Shown piece after piece: positions 7,485 through 55,928 of a DNA stretch of 64,000 bases. A program made the translations under genes and the position numbers. This DNA comes from Coleofasciculus chthonoplastes F2-STO-03 (GTDB lineage: Bacteria > Cyanobacteriota > Cyanobacteriia > Cyanobacteriales > Coleofasciculaceae). Positions within the stretch are counted from its first letter, which is position 1; the number at the start of each line of letters is the position of its first letter. The notes under the pieces were generated by a model. It was not told the DNA's origin and did no database searches. It saw only the letters and a list, made by a program, of their open reading frames with translations. The DNA is taken from assembly GCA_040222015.1 (NCBI GenBank), contig JAVJWO010000153.1:32001-96000 (forward strand), in the 5' to 3' direction.

Positions 7485-7783
7485 GAGAAAAATTCATTAT
7501 CCTAACCCCACTATCCGTCTTTACCGTAACTATCCCAGCTAAAGCCCTGGAACTAAAATCGGCGAGAAGCTGTTTTTTGTCTATGGGCTGGAAGCTGGCG
7601 TTCCGTTGAACTGGGTTCTAAGACTGACCCGCTAAATTTTAGCGTACTTGAGCTTGGGTTCTGGGAAACATGTTTCTCGACTATAGGAGTCAGTACCATT
7701 CTTTTGACTTCTTTTGACGGTTAACTGCTATGACTTAATCCAGGATCTACTCCGCAAGCCCCTAACCGAATTACCTGCAACGA

Positions 7784-47635: not shown

Positions 47636-48928
47636 ATGACCCTCTTGACATTTCTCTTGGGTCTAGCTCTAGGAATTGGGGTTGGCTTATGGTTACAACA
47701 CCGCACCAAACAGCAGCTCAAGCAAACCTTGGAGTTGTTACCAGCCAATTCGACCAGTAACTCGTTTCCCTTAGAGTCTCGTCTACGGGGAGCGATTGTC
47801 CAAGCGAATCAGCAGCGCCTTGTCTTAGAAGACCAACTCAACACCATTCAATCCCTTTTTCAAGTCGCGCCCGTTGGGTATTTACAAGTCGATGAAGACA
47901 ATCACTTAATTTGGTGTAATCAGCAGGCGCGTCAGTTATTACAAATTGACCGATGGGAACCCGGACAGATTCGCTTACTTCTAGAGGTGGTGCGATCCTA
48001 CGAACTGGATCAGTTAATCGAGAAAACGCGCAAACAGCAACAATCGACGAGCCAAGAATGGGTATTTCATCCCGCCTGTATGGATGGTGCAGCCATGAGC
48101 GAAGTGCGATCGCTCACGGTGCGGGCGTATGGTTGGCCCCTCGCTAATGGGCAAGTTGGGGTGTTTCTGGAGAATCGACAACCTTTAATTGAACTCTCGG
48201 AATCTCGCAATCAGTGGGTGTCTGACTTAGCGCACGAATTGAGAACCCCACTCACGTCGATTCGCTTAGTCGCAGAAGCGTTACAAGGACGGGTTAATCC
48301 TCCAGAAAGCCGTTGGGTTAATCAACTCCTGCAAGAAATTAATCGGTTAATTGACTTGATTCAAAATTGGCTAGAACTCAGCCATCTTGAACAAGATCCA
48401 AACAAGAGTCTTACGTATAAATCCCTCGACCTAAACACTTTAATCCAATCGGCTTGGCAACGATTGGAACCTTTGGCAGAGCAAAAACAGTTACATCTTG
48501 CCTATCGTGGACCCGATACTCTGCCCATCAAGGCTGATGAGTCGAGACTCATCCAAGTGTTTTTGAATTTATTAGATAATAGTATTAAACATAGTCCCCC
48601 CCAAGGATTGATTCGAGTTGAAGTAACCACTTCAACACAGGTTGATCCAACCGAAAAAGTGCTGATGCAAATCGATATTATTGACGAAGGCGCGGGGTTT
48701 TCGGGTAATGATTTACCTCGTGTATTTGAGCGACTTTATCGAGGAGATGCTTCGCGGTATCGGCAACCTACATCTGAGAATGTAACCACATTGGGGCGCA
48801 GTAGTGGGAGTGGTTTAGGTTTGGCAATTGTTCAGCAAATTGTTCAGGCTCACGGTGGTACAGTTAATGCTAAAAATCACCCGGAAACAGGGGGGGCTTG
48901 GTTACAGATTCAATTACCTTGTAATTAG
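47636..48928 (+). CDS. sphS: Phosphate sensor histidine kinase SphS/PhoR
   Basis: N-terminal TM, PAS-like region, HELRTPL, NLLDN, GSGLGL. Confidence 0.88.
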   Translation: MTLLTFLLGLALGIGVGLWLQHRTKQQLKQTLELLPANSTSNSFPLESRLRGAIVQANQQRLVLEDQLNTIQSLFQVAPVGYLQVDEDNHLIWCNQQARQLLQIDRWEPGQIRLLLEVVRSYELDQLIEKTRKQQQSTSQEWVFHPACMDGAAMSEVRSLTVRAYGWPLANGQVGVFLENRQPLIELSESRNQWVSDLAHELRTPLTSIRLVAEALQGRVNPPESRWVNQLLQEINRLIDLIQNWLELSHLEQDPNKSLTYKSLDLNTLIQSAWQRLEPLAEQKQLHLAYRGPDTLPIKADESRLIQVFLNLLDNSIKHSPPQGLIRVEVTTSTQVDPTEKVLMQIDIIDEGAGFSGNDLPRVFERLYRGDASRYRQPTSENVTTLGRSSGSGLGLAIVQQIVQAHGGTVNAKNHPETGGAWLQIQLPCN

Positions 48929-49322
48929 TCATTCGTCATACTCGCTTCGCGAGAAGCAAGCTACGTCATTCGTCATACTCGCTTCGCGAGAAGCAAGCTA
49001 CGTCATTCGTCATTCGTTAGGGAACAGGTAATTCATACTATTGTTTTATCTTATCTTCTCCCCTCTACTTTATAAAACCTTCTCTCTAATACGTTCAATC
49101 CCTCTGCTACCTGGAGCGGAAACCTCTGCGTACTCTGCGTTTAAAAAAGATTATCGTCATGGCATTGGGGCGCAAGGCTTGCGCCCCTACCAGGATGGAA
49201 TAGGGTTTGGGTTGGGTTGATGGCTGTTAAACAAAATAGGGCTAAAGCCCTTACTACGAACTACGAACTACGAACCGATTCCCCTATCTTAAAATTGATG
49301 TGTACTAGATTAGCCGATAAAC

Positions 49323-49646
49323 ATGACAACAGCCGTTCAAGTTGCGATCGCGGGGGAGGCTGCTGAACCCGCAGTGTCTGAGTTGATGGGGATTCCGGGG
49401 TTGTCGGTATCCTATGAGGCACAAACTCAAAAAGAGGGGACAATGGCAGTTATTGCCACGATTGTCGGCATTGCTGGCGGAACCGTGGCGCTAGCCGAAC
49501 AAATTCGCAAGTGGTATCAGGAATGGAAGCAATCCCAGTCAGGTGAAACCTTTGATGTGGTGATTCAAAGTCCCACGGGGCGAATTGTCCTGGAAAATGC
49601 CACAATTGAGGAAATTTGTCAAGTCCTAAAAGCCTTGGAACCGTAG
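49323..49646 (+). CDS. Small EACC1-like protein with central glycine-rich hydrophobic helix
   Basis: AVIATIVGIAGGTVALAEQIRKW followed by a beta-hairpin and helix; stop is 2 nt before the CHAT gene start. Confidence 0.6.
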   Translation: MTTAVQVAIAGEAAEPAVSELMGIPGLSVSYEAQTQKEGTMAVIATIVGIAGGTVALAEQIRKWYQEWKQSQSGETFDVVIQSPTGRIVLENATIEEICQVLKALEP

Positions 49647-49648
49647 TC

Positions 49649-52600
49649 GTGCAAACCCTTTATCTGAATATTACCGACATTGACGGCGATTATGCCCAAC
49701 TCCGCTATTCCTGGGGTCAACCGGGAGGGTATGAATCTCAGGACTTGGATTTGGGGATAATTGAGGATTTGATTCAGCAGGCGCGGCGAGACTATTATAT
49801 GCCACTGCCAGACTTGGTGGGCATGGGTCAACGGCTGTTCTTTTGGCTGGATGGAGACGGGCGCTGGTTGAGTCGGGGGATTCAGAGTTGTCGCGGTTCC
49901 GGGTTGGTGTTGGCAATTCAGACGGGACAGAAGTTGGCGCATTTACCCTGGGAAGTGTTGCATGATGGGCAGACGTTTTTAGTGCAGCGGGTGAATCCCG
50001 TGGTTGTCCCCATGCGTTGGGTGGATCATCCGGGGGAGGTGGGGGATACAGAAGCGCGTCCCTTGCGGGTGCTGTTTATGGCGACTGCCCCCCAGGGGGT
50101 TAAGCCTGCGTTGGATTTTGAGCAAGAGGAGGGGACAATTTTACAGGATACGGCTGATTATCCCATCACCCTGCGCGTGGAGGAAAGTGGCTGTGTGGCG
50201 GAGTTGGGTAAGCTGTGGGGGCGGTATCGGGAACCCTTTGATGTCTTCCATTTGACGGGTCATGCGTCGATTAATCAGACGGAACCCTATTTTATTACCG
50301 AGACAGAAACCGGGGAACCCTTGCAAGCGAAGGCGGCGGAGATTGCCGAGGCGTTACAGTTTCGCTTTCCCCCCTTGGTGTTTTTATCCGGATGTCGTAC
50401 TGGGGAGGCGGGGAATCAGGGGGCGATTTCCTCATTGGCGGAGGCGTTGATTGGTTATGGGGCGAAGGCGGTATTGGGTTGGGGACGCCCGGTGACGGAT
50501 ACGGGGGCGACAGTGGCGGCGGCGTATTTGTATGGACGATTGGCGGCGGGGTTTCAGGTGGCTGAGGCGCTGGCGAGTACGTATCAAAAGTTGTTGAAAG
50601 ATAAAATAGCAGATTGGCATTTATTACGGTTGTATAGTCAGGGCGAATGTCCCGGCGCGTTGGTGGAACCCTTGGGGGATGCGGTGTGGTGTGCGCCAGA
50701 ACCCGCCTATTCTGATTTTTTAGACCCCAGAACCCAGTTTATCCGGGTGGCGACAGCCGAGGAATTTGTCGGGCGGCGGCGGGTATTACAGCGCTGCTTG
50801 CGGATGCTGCGGAGTGGGGGGAATTTGGGGGTGTTGATGTATGGCTTGGGGGGTGTGGGGAAAAGTAGCGTGGCGGCGCGATTGTTGGAGAGGTTGGTGG
50901 GATATGACCGAATTGTGGTTTATCGGGGATTGGATGAGGATAAACTGGTGCGGCTATTCTCAGAACAATGTACGTCAGAGGCGGGGTTGGAGATATTGCA
51001 GGGGAAGTTACCTCTGATGCAGCGATTGACTAAGTTTTTCCAGGCGGGATTGAATCAGCTACAGCAACGGTTTGTGGTGGTGTTGGATGATTTTGAGGCA
51101 AATCTGGAAATGCGCGGGGATGGGGTGGCGGTATTAAAGCCGCAGGTGGTGGATGTGTTGCAGGCGCTGCTGAAGGGGATGGTGAATTCTAAGTTACCCC
51201 ATCGGGTGATTATTACCAGTCGCTATGAGTTTAGATTAGGGGATGCCATGGTGAATCGTCGCCTGCATCGAGAACCCTTGGCGGGGTTACAGGGGGCGGA
51301 TTTAGCTAAGAAATATACCCGGTTGGCGGCGTTTAGTCGGGAGTCTCAGGTAGAGGCGGCGATACAGGAGAAGGCGAAGCAGGTAGCGGATGGGAATCCG
51401 CGTCTGTTGGAGTGGTTGAATCAGATTTTGGCAGATGAACAGGTGGATGAGGAGACGATTCTCCAGCAGATGCAGGGGAAAGCCGCAGAGTTTCGCGAGA
51501 GTATTTTAGCTGAGGAGTTGTTGAAGCAGCAGCCATCTGGGGTGAGGCAAATCTTGGGGATAGGGTTGGTGTATGAGTTACCGGTGCCTTATCCGGCGAT
51601 GGAGGCGGTTTGTCAGGGGATTGGGAATTTTGATAATGGGGTGCAACGGGCGATAAGTTTGGGGTTGTTGGAGGTGAGTGAGTTTCAGGGGGAGGAGTCT
51701 TATCGGGTGTCGCGGATTCTGGCACCGTTATTGGAGATTCCGGAAAATAGGGAGGATTTGGATAAAACGGCGGCGCAAACCCTGTATCATCTCTGGTGGG
51801 AAGTGGGGAAGAGTGAGATAGAAGAACAACGGCGGGAGATTCATCGCTTGGCGTTGCGGGGGAATTTGCCAGAGATAGCGGCTGAAATGGCACGGGTTCT
51901 GTCAAATAGTTGGCAAAAACAGAGTCGGTTTCGGGAAGCATTGCAGTTATGTGAATCCACGCTAACTCTGACCCAAGATTATCGGGTGATGCATCAGTTA
52001 GCTAGAGCTGAAGCAGAATTGGGTGAGGTTTCCGCAGCTAAGGAACATTATCAGCAGGCATTAGCCAGTTGTCCAGAGGCGGAGGAACAGACAAAAGCGG
52101 CGATTATTCACAATCTGGCTGGTAACTATCTCCGACAGGGGGAAATCGACGAAGCTATTTCCCTGTATCAGCAATCGATGGAAATCACACAGCAGATTGG
52201 GGATGTGGAAGGGGCAGCGACGGCGTTACATAATCTGGCAGATATCCACGCCCAACAGGGAGAAATCGAACAAGCCATTTCCCTCTATCAGCAATCGATG
52301 GAAATCAAACAGCGGATTGGCGATGTGCAAGGGGAAGCGGCGACGTTAAACAAGCTGGCAGATATCTATCTCAAACAAGGACATATCAAAAAAGCCATTT
52401 ACCTCTATCAGCAGTCACTGGAATTCAAACGGCGGATTGGCAATGTGCAAGGGGAAGCGGTGACTTTACAAAATCTGGCATATATCCACGCCCAACAGGG
52501 GGAAATCGAGGAAGCTATTTCCCTGTATAAGCAATCGTTGAAACTCACACGGCGGATTGGGGATGTGAAAACAGAAGCGACGGCGTTACATAATCTGGCA

Positions 52601-53218
52601 GATATCCACGCCCAACAGGGAGAAATCGAGAAAGCCATTTTCCGGTATCAGCAATCGATGGAAATCACAAAGCGCATTAGGTATGTGCAAGGGGAAGCGG
52701 CGACTTTACACAAGCTGGCATATATCCATGCCCAACAGGGGAAAATCGACGAAGCCATTTCCCTGTATCAGCAATCCCTGGACATCAAACGGCGGATTGG
52801 GGATGTGCAAGGGGAAGCGGCAACTTTACAAAATCTGGCATATATCCATGCCCAAAAGAGGGAAATCGACGAAGCCATTTCCCTGTATCAGCAATCCCTG
52901 GACATCACACAGCGGATTGGCAATGTGCAAGGGGAAGCGGCGACGTTACACTGTCTGGCAATTATCCACGCCCAACAGGGAGAAATCGAGTCAGCTATTT
53001 CCCTGTATCAGCAGTCACTGAAACTCACACGGCGGATTGAGGATGTGAAAACAGAAGCGGTGACGTTAGCCATGCTGGGACAACTCTTAGCCGATGAGAA
53101 AGGAGAGGTTGAAACCGCGATTGACTATTTGCAGCAATCCTTGGCTATCTTACAGCACCTGAAATCCCCCGATGCGGAGACGGTTAGGGACATTTTGAAT
53201 GATTTGAGGCGGATGTAG
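49649..53218 (+). CDS. CHAT (caspase-like) protease - STAND NTPase - TPR protein
   Basis: LPWEVL, catalytic HLTGH and LSGC, FVGRR, Walker A GLGGVGKS, Walker B VLDDFE, GNP motif, 40-aa TPR repeats; GTG start preferred. Confidence 0.9.
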   Translation: MQTLYLNITDIDGDYAQLRYSWGQPGGYESQDLDLGIIEDLIQQARRDYYMPLPDLVGMGQRLFFWLDGDGRWLSRGIQSCRGSGLVLAIQTGQKLAHLPWEVLHDGQTFLVQRVNPVVVPMRWVDHPGEVGDTEARPLRVLFMATAPQGVKPALDFEQEEGTILQDTADYPITLRVEESGCVAELGKLWGRYREPFDVFHLTGHASINQTEPYFITETETGEPLQAKAAEIAEALQFRFPPLVFLSGCRTGEAGNQGAISSLAEALIGYGAKAVLGWGRPVTDTGATVAAAYLYGRLAAGFQVAEALASTYQKLLKDKIADWHLLRLYSQGECPGALVEPLGDAVWCAPEPAYSDFLDPRTQFIRVATAEEFVGRRRVLQRCLRMLRSGGNLGVLMYGLGGVGKSSVAARLLERLVGYDRIVVYRGLDEDKLVRLFSEQCTSEAGLEILQGKLPLMQRLTKFFQAGLNQLQQRFVVVLDDFEANLEMRGDGVAVLKPQVVDVLQALLKGMVNSKLPHRVIITSRYEFRLGDAMVNRRLHREPLAGLQGADLAKKYTRLAAFSRESQVEAAIQEKAKQVADGNPRLLEWLNQILADEQVDEETILQQMQGKAAEFRESILAEELLKQQPSGVRQILGIGLVYELPVPYPAMEAVCQGIGNFDNGVQRAISLGLLEVSEFQGEESYRVSRILAPLLEIPENREDLDKTAAQTLYHLWWEVGKSEIEEQRREIHRLALRGNLPEIAAEMARVLSNSWQKQSRFREALQLCESTLTLTQDYRVMHQLARAEAELGEVSAAKEHYQQALASCPEAEEQTKAAIIHNLAGNYLRQGEIDEAISLYQQSMEITQQIGDVEGAATALHNLADIHAQQGEIEQAISLYQQSMEIKQRIGDVQGEAATLNKLADIYLKQGHIKKAIYLYQQSLEFKRRIGNVQGEAVTLQNLAYIHAQQGEIEEAISLYKQSLKLTRRIGDVKTEATALHNLADIHAQQGEIEKAIFRYQQSMEITKRIRYVQGEAATLHKLAYIHAQQGKIDEAISLYQQSLDIKRRIGDVQGEAATLQNLAYIHAQKREIDEAISLYQQSLDITQRIGNVQGEAATLHCLAIIHAQQGEIESAISLYQQSLKLTRRIEDVKTEAVTLAMLGQLLADEKGEVETAIDYLQQSLAILQHLKSPDAETVRDILNDLRRM

Positions 53219-53364
53219 GTTTTTGCAACGGTATCTTTTTGCAACGGTATCCAGAAGCGTCCGCGTAGGGGCTTGGTTTCCAAGCCCTTGGTTTCCAAGC
53301 CCTTAGTTTCCAAGCCCGTACAGGTGGGGAAGTGGTGTTTAGTTGTCGCTAAATACGGTAATAA

Positions 53365-53774
53365 GAGATCCCCCCTAACCCCCCTTCAAAAGGGGGGAAC
53401 AAGAAATTGCCTGCTTTGAGAACCAGAAATTGTATTCTTTGTCAGGGGGGAACAAGACATTTTACCCTTTGTTAGGAAAGAACCAGAAATTGCACCCTTT
53501 GTTAGGAAAGAACCAGAAATTGCACACTTTGTCAGGAGTGAATCAGAAATTAAGCCCAGTCATTTAAGGGGACAATAAAACATCAATCAAAGTCTCCCTT
53601 TCAATGAATCAATTACTCAAAGTCCCCCTTTCATCCCAAATCCGGGTTAGCTACCCCCGTTATAAACCAGTCCGCGCAGGCGGACTTTGTTTGTGTAGCA
53701 GCGATTTCAATCGCCGTGGCAAAAGGGGGTAATAAAGGCGGATTTGGTATCAAAGGAGGATTTAGGGGGATCTC
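53365..53774. mobile_element. MITE-like element with terminal inverted repeats, internal 30-bp VNTR and nested smaller element
   Basis: GAGATCCCCCCTAA...TTAGGGGGGATCTC ends; GAACCAGAAATT.. units at 53420-53550; nested CCAAATCC...GGATTTGG at about 53634-53750. Confidence 0.6.
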
Positions 53775-53971
53775 AACCTTAATCGCGTAATCACAAGCTT
53801 AAATAAACCCCAATGGCAAACGGTTTACTCTCACAGTAAAGAAACCCACCGAAATTCTGGGGAAGGGCGGGTTTTGTATAGAAGTTATCGGATTTCCCCT
53901 CAATATTTTGGCTAAACCCGCCCCTACAAGTTTTCGGATTGATAGCGCTGCAAGAGAGAGAGTACGAATGA

Positions 53972-54265
53972 CTAATGACTAATGACTAATGACAAATTTC
54001 CTTCTTGGCGTAATTGCTTATGGGTTTGCCGATCCGCTTCCAAGTCCGCTTCATTATAATGTAACTCGACACCTTTGGCTTTGAGGAATGTATCAACCTC
54101 CAAGCGGGTAGACATTCCCAGTAATTCTCGCACTTTACCGACACTAATCGAACCCTCACGATAGGCGGCAATGACAATCATTTCCAGTAGCCTGCGTTCC
54201 AAGCTACCCCATTTAAGTTCTAACGAATGCGCGACATCATCGGGTAGGGCGATCTGAATTTCCAT
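53972..54265 (-). CDS. UPF0175 family protein (putative antitoxin, orphan)
   Basis: AYREGSISVGKVRELLG..R.E...FL...GV.LHY...DLE.D motif. Confidence 0.85.
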   Translation of the reverse strand: MEIQIALPDDVAHSLELKWGSLERRLLEMIVIAAYREGSISVGKVRELLGMSTRLEVDTFLKAKGVELHYNEADLEADRQTHKQLRQEGNLSLVISH

Positions 54266-55043: not shown

Positions 55044-55441
55044 TTGACACTCCCCCGGCTGAAAGCACGGGGGATTCTTCGTTCATCCAATCACCTTAGA
55101 GTATTGACTCTCGTCAATGCAGAAGAGGGCGAGTTGTCCCGAAGCGTTTATCCAGTATTCCTGGAACGTTCCTGTGTGCCCCACAGTACGGAGTGCTTCC
55201 TTGAGTATGTTAATTGCAGCGTTCCAATCACGATCTAAAACACACCCGCACTTACACCTATGCGTTCGAGTTGATAGTGATTTGTTCACCACACAACCGC
55301 AATTAGAACAGTTCTGGGAGGTGTAGTGAGGCTTAACGGCAACCGTCGCCACCCCAAACACTTTCCCGAAATACTCAAGCCACCGCCTAAATTCAGACCA
55401 GGCGGCATCGCTAATTGATTTAGCTAGATGGTGGTTTTTGA
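55044..55441 (-). mobile_element. IS200/IS605 remnant: tnpB 3' half plus right end
   Basis: LAKSISDAAW, YTSQNCSNCG, RTHRCKCG, DRDWNAAINI; right end hairpin TTGACACTCCCCCGGCTGAAAGCACGGGGGATTCT. Confidence 0.88.
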
Positions 55442-55465
55442 CGCTTCGGCTTCGCTCAGCGTCAA

Positions 55466-55928
55466 CCATATTCCGCACTTGCAAGTCCATTACATGCAGC
55501 GAACCTCCCACGGTTCCACGCTCAGCCGGATGGTGCATTCCTGGGTATTATCTCGATCTGACCGAGAAAAAGCTTGGAAATTCTTTAAAGAGGCTCTCCA
55601 TAGCGATATTGATGACATTCAGGGAGGTACAACACCTGAAGGCATCAACTTAGGGGCGATGGCGGGAACGGTGGATCTGATGCAACGGTGTTATACAGGG
55701 TTGGACATTCGCGATCAGGTATTGTGGTTGAATCCGTCTCTACCCCAAGAACTATCTGATACACGCCTGCGATTGCGCTATCGAGGACATTGGTTATCGC
55801 TGCGGTTTACGGATGAAAAGATAACCGTTTCATTTGATCGCGGCTAGTCCAAACCTGTCTGCGTTGGCTTCCAGGGTGAGGTGTATGAGATGGTAGAAGG
55901 GGAGACAAGGGAGTTTGAATTGGCTTGA
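55466..55928 (+). pseudogene. GH65 glycoside phosphorylase C-terminal fragment with internal stop
   Basis: RTSHGSTLS, DIQGGTTPEGINLGAMAG; TAG at 55845 followed by more homologous-looking codons. Confidence 0.8.

Follow-up and report, generated by a model that had tools for sequence, protein, structure and literature searches.

The 64,000-nucleotide stretch of Coleofasciculus chthonoplastes F2-STO-03 analyzed here (contig JAVJWO010000153.1, positions 32,001 to 96,000; hereafter the window) carries at 49323-53218 two adjacent genes on the forward strand, which probably constitute a two-gene abortive-death module of the EACC1-caspase kind, i.e., a pore-forming toxin activated by a neighboring protease. 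The small gene encodes P0001 and the large gene P0002, with the following features:

49323..49646 (+): small gene, 107 residues (P0001), divergent EACC1-like, predicted latent pore-forming toxin (open reading frame, homologs, model)
49428..49442 (+): predicted cleavage loop, residues 36-40, joining strands 2 and 3 (model, alignment)
49431-49433 (+): codon of Lys37 of the small gene (alignment)
49440..49496 (+): hydrophobic Gly-rich segment, residues 40-58, predicted membrane segment after cleavage (model, hydropathy)
49649..53218 (+): large gene, 1189 residues (P0002), comprising an alpha/beta N-terminal part, CHAT protease, STAND NTPase and tetratricopeptide repeat (TPR) sensor
49907..50608 (+): CHAT (caspase-fold) protease domain, residues 87-320 (Pfam, alignment)
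50261-50263, 50393-50395 and 50498-50500 (+): CHAT residues His205, Cys249 and Asp284, respectively (alignment)
50762..51748 (+): STAND NTPase module of the NB-ARC/AP-ATPase-like type, approximately residues 372-700 (Pfam, alignment, model)
50843-50866, 51074-51097 and 51392-51400 (+): STAND motifs Walker A, Walker B and GxP, respectively (alignment)
52091..53050 (+): eight 40-residue (120-bp) TPR units, then a capping repeat; predicted diversifying sensor

The small gene ends with a TAG stop codon and, after a gap of 2 nucleotides, a GTG at 49649 opens the 1189-residue frame that runs to 53218. The first-pass annotation of this DNA, made from the sequence alone, had described the pair in the same way (107 residues, 2 nucleotides ahead of a protein of roughly 1190), and this description stands. 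The GTG is taken as the start of the large gene because homologs begin at the same residue, which rules out an upstream TTG at 49616. No sigma-70 promoter match was found 5' of the pair. The small open reading frame is a real gene: 59 of 71 candidates are relatives, and 232 cluster representatives match at E≤0.001.

P0002 matches CHAT over residues 87-320 (E 8e-22; 78.5 bits against a cut-off of 24) and AAA_16 over residues 372-510 (33.8 bits against a cut-off of 32.6), followed by TPRs at about 770-1125. The intact His/Cys dyad of the caspase fold, the STAND motifs and the TPR sensor, all of which the first-pass annotation had read from the translation, are borne out by alignment and Pfam: His205, Cys249 and Walker A Lys405 are each present in 72/72 aligned sequences, Walker B Asp480 in 70/70, and Gly582 of the GxP motif in 65/66. 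Glu158, Glu160 and Glu161 are invariant as well, and position 284 is acidic in all 72 sequences. A profile match above the cut-off, the dyad and the caspase fold characterize the region as a CHAT protease, while Walker A, Walker B, a sensor-1 Arg, GxP, helical and winged-helix parts and C-terminal repeats characterize the remainder as a STAND protein; two homologs of P0002 exceed the NB-ARC cut-off. Fold searches with the AlphaFold model of residues 1-780 (predicted local distance difference test, pLDDT, 77) retrieved SAVED-CHAT, Csx29, an archaeal STAND-TPR protein and Apaf-1 at E 1e-8 to 1e-7, and further CED-4 and 6MFV. With the CHAT region as query, the PDB yielded by sequence one weak CHAT match (E 0.96) and one chance match. 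The 85-residue alpha/beta region preceding the CHAT match (49649-49903) is conserved across the clade. A complex prediction for two CHAT domains with the small protein (score 0.14, mark 0.32) was used neither way.

The AlphaFold model of the small protein (pLDDT 85.7; three of five models above 83) consists of strand 5-11, a helix, strand 27-35, loop 36-40, strand 41-50, helix 54-71, two strands and a final helix, which by fold searches and AlphaFold is a ferredoxin-like arrangement; the modeled protein is an alpha/beta monomer without a free tail. Residues 40-58 have a mean Kyte-Doolittle hydropathy of 1.97 over 19 residues (family median 2.13; canonical EACC1 set 1.92), and Gly49, Gly52 and Gly53 are conserved in the family alignment. 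A Gly-rich hydrophobic helix had been reported here; the hydrophobic Gly-rich segment is present, but in the uncut model it forms a strand (41-50) plus the start of a helix that spans just 54-71. The helical reading probably describes the form after cleavage. In the ferredoxin-like fold, strands 1 and 2 flank strands 3 and 4, therefore loss of residues 1-37 would expose the hydrophobic strand, in agreement with the published model of EACC1 autoinhibition.

The EACC1-like identity suggested by the first-pass annotation is upheld by profile-profile comparison, language-model neighbors and the predicted fold, but as a remote kinship lying below the cut-off of the Pfam family (PF19953); the small protein is thus a probable divergent relative of EACC1 outside formal membership. 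The best relative matches PF19953 at E 8.4e-5, and in a wide set 13/107 relatives match it at E≤0.01, while the next family is matched by 2/107. For a canonical EACC1 alignment, 44 proteins were taken from the 67 relatives found for a cyanobacterial gene above the PF19953 cut-off. Against these 44 proteins, the profile-profile comparison (hhalign) gave E 4.7e-4 with a probability of 32%, and after realignment E 1.8e-4 with 48%, over the C-terminal 65 columns, which begin at the loop and end with the last helix; the score was reached by 0/150 column shuffles and 1/150 block shuffles. The aligned part extends outside the hydrophobic stretch to a Trp, two strands and the last helix. Among the 30 named language-model neighbors in the Atlas, 27 are EACC1-bearing clusters at 0.90-0.92, and in the three clusters displayed EACC1 is carried by 10-30% of the members. 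As described for EACC1 systems, a single hydrophobic segment with a small-residue patch lies between alpha+beta elements. PF19953 had no match in this genome and matches in 6/301 genomes of the class at E≤0.001; the profile of the present family matches those canonical genes weakly (best E 0.012, in a small set). Fold searches with the small-protein model returned generic ferredoxin-like structures, none at E≤0.001, with the best Z at 7.5 and none at or above 8; TRADD-N was among them (Z 5.6). Among the Pfam matches listed for the small protein and its relatives there was none to Pepco, a beta-barrel former activated when a C-terminal tail is lost, with which no direct comparison was made. In one protein of 368 residues (P0146), the small domain is fused C-terminally (269-367) to a part that has no Pfam match.

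The loop before the hydrophobic segment (..TQKEG..), which the first-pass annotation had named as the probable cleavage point, is conserved and exposed, and residues 36-40 are likely the cut site. Among 299 aligned relatives (a redundant set), position 37 is Arg in 59% and Lys in 37% (n=286), which at 96% Arg/Lys makes it the most conserved residue of the loop, and Lys or Arg is also found at the aligned spot in the canonical EACC1 set. Position 38 is Glu in 79% and Asp in 11% (n=273), usually followed by Gly; the rest are mostly Gly, Ala or Ser. In a model of separase, two acidic residues hold the P1-Arg, one following strand 1 and the other being the Asp that begins helix 4 (PMC4626109, as far as the accessible part of this modeling paper goes). 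Glu158, Glu160, Glu161 and Asp284 of the CHAT domain occupy analogous places, with equivalence judged by sequence position, and the separase S1 analogy rests on that paper. The protease is thus likely specific for Lys/Arg, and as these acids are retained together with a basic residue at position 37, a cut after Lys37 is predicted; if cleavage occurs, this point appears fairly probable. The released C-terminal piece would have 7.6 kDa and retain the 19-residue hydrophobic segment.

The linkage of the two genes, which the first-pass annotation had named as a check, proved near-obligate. A P0002-like CHAT gene lies downstream of the small gene in 78/79 loci of a first set (genome contigs, best 80 of 242 matches kept) and in 28/30 of a second, overlapping set (a phylum sample plus the source genome), the duplicate L024 being dropped. 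The gap between the genes is 20 nucleotides or less in 73/106, and the order corresponds to that of EACC1 systems, with the small gene 5' of a gene for an N-terminal caspase-superfamily peptidase whose C-terminus varies (TPR or GUN4-like). A reverse search gave 47 CHAT matches (five candidates per genome scored, coordinates compared by eye), of which 37 belong to this CHAT clade; 35 of the 37 adjoin a small-gene match, and the contig breaks off at the other 2. A further row represents the second half of a gene split by a frameshift. The five small genes without an intact partner that were inspected are all truncated, frameshifted or devoid of the hydrophobic segment. The arrangement differs at L126 (5700-7136), where a truncated small gene follows a Peptidase_C14 caspase gene and does not precede a CHAT gene. 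In other cyanobacteria, canonical EACC1-like genes (L112-L116) are each directly 5' of a caspase-like gene. In six loci (L068, L085, L090, L101, L108, and L110), small genes that read as toxin-antitoxin-like in the DNA are inserted between the small and protease genes. Where the two genes are spaced apart, a conserved TGnTAGACT motif, read by eye and resembling an extended -10 element, lies just 5' of the CHAT start (L003, L012, L078, L084, L091, L103, and L106).

The pair belongs to accessory DNA at the genus level, as the first-pass annotation had held. A small-gene match occurs in 5/9 genomes of the genus, the source genome included, and the same site is deleted or empty in three congeners: G631 lacks the equivalent of window 49262-53121 and G633 that of 49510-53126, with different breakpoints and the 3' end of the gene retained in both, and G632 has no trace. 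The closest named relatives (95-96%) carry the label Coleofasciculus. In the phylum sample, 48/401 genomes match at E≤0.001, with 26 of 45 in one family; of the 54 rows listed, the final 13 are weak or partial matches. A second pair in this genome (contig C26; L001 5959-9486) is of the other sub-type, its small protein being 44% and its CHAT region 53% identical to those in the window; an in-frame stop (7573-7575) interrupts its large gene, and in three congeners this copy is damaged in other ways, being shortened, partly deleted or left with a broken small gene. Of the large genes at the 79 loci, 49 stop at 950 residues or more and 15 earlier, although some of the latter could be intact short forms or reflect faulty assembly; 10 extend past the end of the locus, 3 contain assembly gaps, and 2 are otherwise broken. 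Five copies are on plasmids. Four of these were viewed: two from Nostoc punctiforme with a GUN4-like end, one from Acaryochloris annotated as a TPR protein, and one with a short open reading frame and an insertion sequence downstream. In the Nostoc punctiforme PCC 73102 plasmid loci L137 (6001-9230) and L139 (6001-8963), the same small gene and CHAT-STAND part carry the GUN4-like domain in place of TPRs; a gene annotated ParG is directly upstream in L136, L137, and L139. A metagenome scan with a divergent member gave one locus (L140), where the match is inside an unrelated long open reading frame, and no match was found in phage records.

The sensor is an array of near-identical 40-residue TPRs that differs between genes in its number of units. 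The eight 120-bp units in the window are 71-92% identical to each other at the DNA level and end in a cap. Among 60 genes of at least 800 residues, the number of window-like units ranges from 0 to 15; genes with none include truncated ones as well as full-length ones whose TPRs are degenerate and unrelated. For 380 units from 45 genes, identity between units is 81% inside a gene and 76% from one gene to another. The metagenome contig X4 matches the small gene, CHAT and STAND at about 96% identity, while its array is shorter by about 480 nucleotides (four units); X1 and X2 show a 240-nucleotide repeat joint, although the assembly of repeats can err. Amino-acid changes are in excess at groove-facing positions. 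When units were compared within 43 genes (first unit dropped, register from the Pfam TPR_1 match), the ratio of nonsynonymous (pN) to mean synonymous (pS) differences was 2.3 at TPR position 9, 2.2 at 6 and 31, 1.6 at -1 and 1.3 at 2. At these five positions the bootstrap intervals lie above 1, and the median over 40 positions is 0.41, in a crude test of pairwise counts that ignores gene relatedness and recombination. Positions 2, 5, 6, 9, 12, and 13 are ligand contacts in TPRs (PMC1261162, accessible part). The array appears to undergo reshuffling, with diversification of its groove-facing residues; this would alter recognition and leave the killing arm untouched. Both this diversifying sensor and the likely Lys/Arg specificity go beyond the first-pass annotation. 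It may tentatively be suggested that the receptor generates its own repertoire, with recombination of 120-bp TPR units and positive selection in the groove feeding a fixed, separase-like, Arg/Lys-specific protease and an EACC1-type pore; new specificities would then arise in a way that could be likened to fungal het-type NOD-like receptors (NLRs). Such a repertoire could help filamentous cyanobacteria to keep up with phage proteins that change fast, or to discriminate self from non-self filaments.

The two genes, the intact catalytic motifs, the near-obligate linkage and the variation of the sensor repeats are direct observations; the activity of the module is pictured as follows. The small protein would rest as a soluble ferredoxin-like monomer whose N-terminal 37 residues cover the hydrophobic segment 40-58. 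A foreign molecule, most likely a phage protein, may bind in the groove of the TPR array, upon which the STAND part would oligomerize and bring the CHAT domains into the active form. These would cut the loop 36-40, after Lys37 more likely than after Glu38, and the freed 7.6-kDa C-terminal piece would insert into the membrane, oligomerize and kill the cell. The mechanism is known in kind, because EACC1-caspase-STAND pore toxins have been demonstrated experimentally (bioRxiv 10.1101/2025.11.14.688446, from the accessible parts of the preprint). The first-pass analogy to an NLR-caspase-gasdermin route is consistent with the results for EACC1 and KrAvs12 of Ktedonobacter in the same preprint.

Several observations weigh against this interpretation. 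P0001 itself reaches just 15 bits (E 0.025) with PF19953, whose gathering cut-off is 23.6, and in the close set weak Pfam matches to the unrelated Avian_gp85 (15/43) and GP57 (11/43) outnumber those to EACC1 (8/43). The HH probabilities are limited to the above 32-48% over the C-terminal columns, and the close alignment alone gives E 0.014 with a probability of 3%. The covariation of small-protein and CHAT identities, in itself in favor of the pairing (Spearman 0.78 for 68 pairs, with 0.28 as the best of 500 shuffles), cannot separate partnership from shared descent, because shared descent alone could produce such a correlation, and only 6 of 13 supported splits of the small-protein tree recur in the CHAT tree. 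The crudeness of the pN/pS test counts here as well. PADLOC 2.0, to which the first-pass annotation had looked for a defense assignment, has no model for the small protein and gives TPR-level or weak matches for the large one, none of them to Avs. Among the gene neighbors (84 families from 63 loci, 81 scanned, no control set), PADLOC matches are few and correspond to Uma2-like PDC-S03 or partial domains, and the commonest neighbors are without a match.

If the kinship to EACC1 were spurious, the likeness would be owed to a common ferredoxin-like fold that contains a hydrophobic Gly-rich stretch, as the score below the Pfam cut-off, the generic fold matches and the one block shuffle exceeding the real profile-profile score would allow; this appears improbable, as sequence, language-model and gene-context evidence all favor EACC1, and the aligned Trp, strands and last helix are not part of that stretch. 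The place of the cut is a sub-question: the same module and outcome with a cut after Glu38, i.e., an acidic P1, would be compatible with the other steps and is possible, though doubtful. Position 38 is acidic in 90% of the relatives, and the KrEACC1 site has been placed at Asp49, both of which also speak against Lys37; but that Asp was assigned from a structure model (according to the accessible part of the source), position 37 is better conserved, many relatives have Arg-Gly, Lys-Gly or Arg-Ser, and the CHAT domain has acids and no arginines at the separase-analogous positions.

It is rather unlikely, if less so than a spurious kinship, that the small protein serves the protease as a membrane-linked sensor, adaptor or inhibitor, with the protease then cutting itself or a host protein. 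Such a role is close to the original EACC1 sensor proposal (PMC7159879, accessible part), and a caspase without a partner gave defense (bioRxiv 10.1101/2025.11.14.688446, accessible part). A sister CHAT-STAND-TPR clade (L117-L125), a further point against the toxin interpretation, has no adjoining small gene at 9/9 loci, and its dyad is intact in 4/5 aligned members (lost in L125); therefore, such proteases can exist without this partner. One congener has a full-length large gene beside a broken small gene, which is in line with such a role but speaks against an essential inhibitor, and the EACC1 tested in that preprint is a toxin, while orphan small genes decay. Somewhat less unlikely is that the chemistry proceeds as proposed with a trigger other than phage, such as filament non-self recognition, predators, plasmids, stress or developmental death. 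No defense-island context was seen among the scanned neighbors (no control set), the repeats behave like those of fungal NLRs, some of which control non-self recognition (PMC4986451, accessible part), and copies occur on conjugative plasmids, two with the GUN4-like domain replacing TPRs. Thirteen further STAND families, however, sense phage proteins (PMC13581612, accessible part), and patchy presence, repeated loss and positive selection fit a host-parasite race better than development. A protease-activated pore toxin with a predicted diversifying sensor remains the favored reading.

The pair in the window is flanked on one side by a response regulator-histidine kinase pair and on the other by phoU. 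Downstream are a UPF0175 gene (53972-54265, reverse strand), a TnpB-like fragment (55083-55538, reverse strand) and a glycosyl hydrolase 65 fragment (55428-55847, forward strand); a UPF0175 gene is also 3' of the second copy of the pair on C26. Short tandem repeats are found on either side (48928-49013, 53220-53551, and 53967-53997), and positions 50001-52000 have a guanine-cytosine (GC) content of 0.52-0.56 and a GC skew of 0.34-0.39, the maximum of skew in the window.

The small genes are without family annotation (no precomputed Pfam domain), therefore a widespread cyanobacterial death module would be invisible to current libraries. No paper on this clade was found, although it may be covered by the source data behind PMC7159879, by the figures or the supplementary PDF accompanying the preprint 10.1101/2025.11.14.688446, or by the large tables of PMC13581612; five accessions are absent from seven supplements of PMC13581612, its large tables being outside that comparison, and the accessible parts of PMC8195603 and 10.64898/2026.10.19.760177 add nothing on it. 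If the interpretation holds, the EACC1 pore mechanism would extend to a second protease class with a testable cut-site prediction, and the repeats would indicate at the sequence level that the TPR sensors of NLR-like proteins in bacteria diversify in the manner of their fungal counterparts, as previously suggested (10.1101/2020.01.06.895854, accessible part). The genes NPUN_RS35065 and NPUN_RS35070 of the cultured Nostoc punctiforme PCC 73102 offer an easy route to testing the killing arm. The CHAT-type instead of C14-type pairing, the predicted basic cut site and the putative diversifying sensor would be the new points.

A caspase-fold protease that activates a dedicated neighboring substrate is known from gasdermins with CHAT or caspase proteases. 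Csx29-Csx30 has the same layout, and the CHAT fold here matches Csx29; unlike gasdermin and Csx30, the substrate is a 107-residue ferredoxin-like protein, and neither appeared among the 25 of 54 Pfam matches listed or in the small-protein fold searches. The EACC1 two-gene conflict system (system 4) was defined with a proposed sensor role (PMC7159879, here and below from its accessible part). It shares with the present pair the 5' small gene with one hydrophobic segment and a small-residue patch, the 3' caspase-superfamily gene with a variable C-terminus (here TPR, or GUN4-like on Nostoc plasmids) and multicellular hosts, but it is described as mainly actinobacterial, whereas the present clade is cyanobacterial and below the Pfam cut-off. 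The canonical cyanobacterial genes at L112-L116 also differ in adjoining caspases with C14-like motifs.

A close counterpart is from Ktedonobacter racemifer (bioRxiv 10.1101/2025.11.14.688446, accessible parts), where EACC1 is cut by the caspase-STAND protein KrAvs12, toxicity needs EACC1 and the catalytic Cys, the pieces have 5.7 and 7.1 kDa with only the C-terminal one toxic, and the cut protein makes liposomes leak. In both systems the small gene is directly 5' of a caspase-fold protease fused to STAND, the small proteins are of similar size (114 and 107 residues) with an alpha/beta N-terminal part and a loop before the hydrophobic segment, and the C-terminal piece has 7.1 kDa there against a predicted 7.6 kDa here. 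The KrEACC1 site, Asp49 from the structure model and tolerant of shifts, aligns by eye with loop 36-40 before the hydrophobic segment, with an Arg three residues ahead of it. Unlike in KrAvs12, where a C14-type caspase is N-terminal (by motif reading of Table S1), CHAT here follows an 85-residue alpha/beta domain, and the cut, assigned to Asp there, is predicted after Lys/Arg here; the trigger of KrAvs12 is a tail connector. With Avs receptors, among the many STANDs that sense phage proteins (PMC13581612, accessible part), the large protein shares the effector-STAND-TPR layout and an expected ligand-driven oligomerization, but its sensor consists of tandem near-identical repeats of variable number and has no PADLOC Avs match. 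Near-identical repeats have been noted in bacterial NLRs, and their diversification suggested (bioRxiv 10.1101/2020.01.06.895854, accessible part). The sensor also resembles that of fungal NLRs (PMC4986451, accessible part), with near-identical TPR repeats, repeat-number polymorphism and selection on the concave face, from which the present protein differs in being bacterial and in combining a CHAT effector with an EACC1-like partner.

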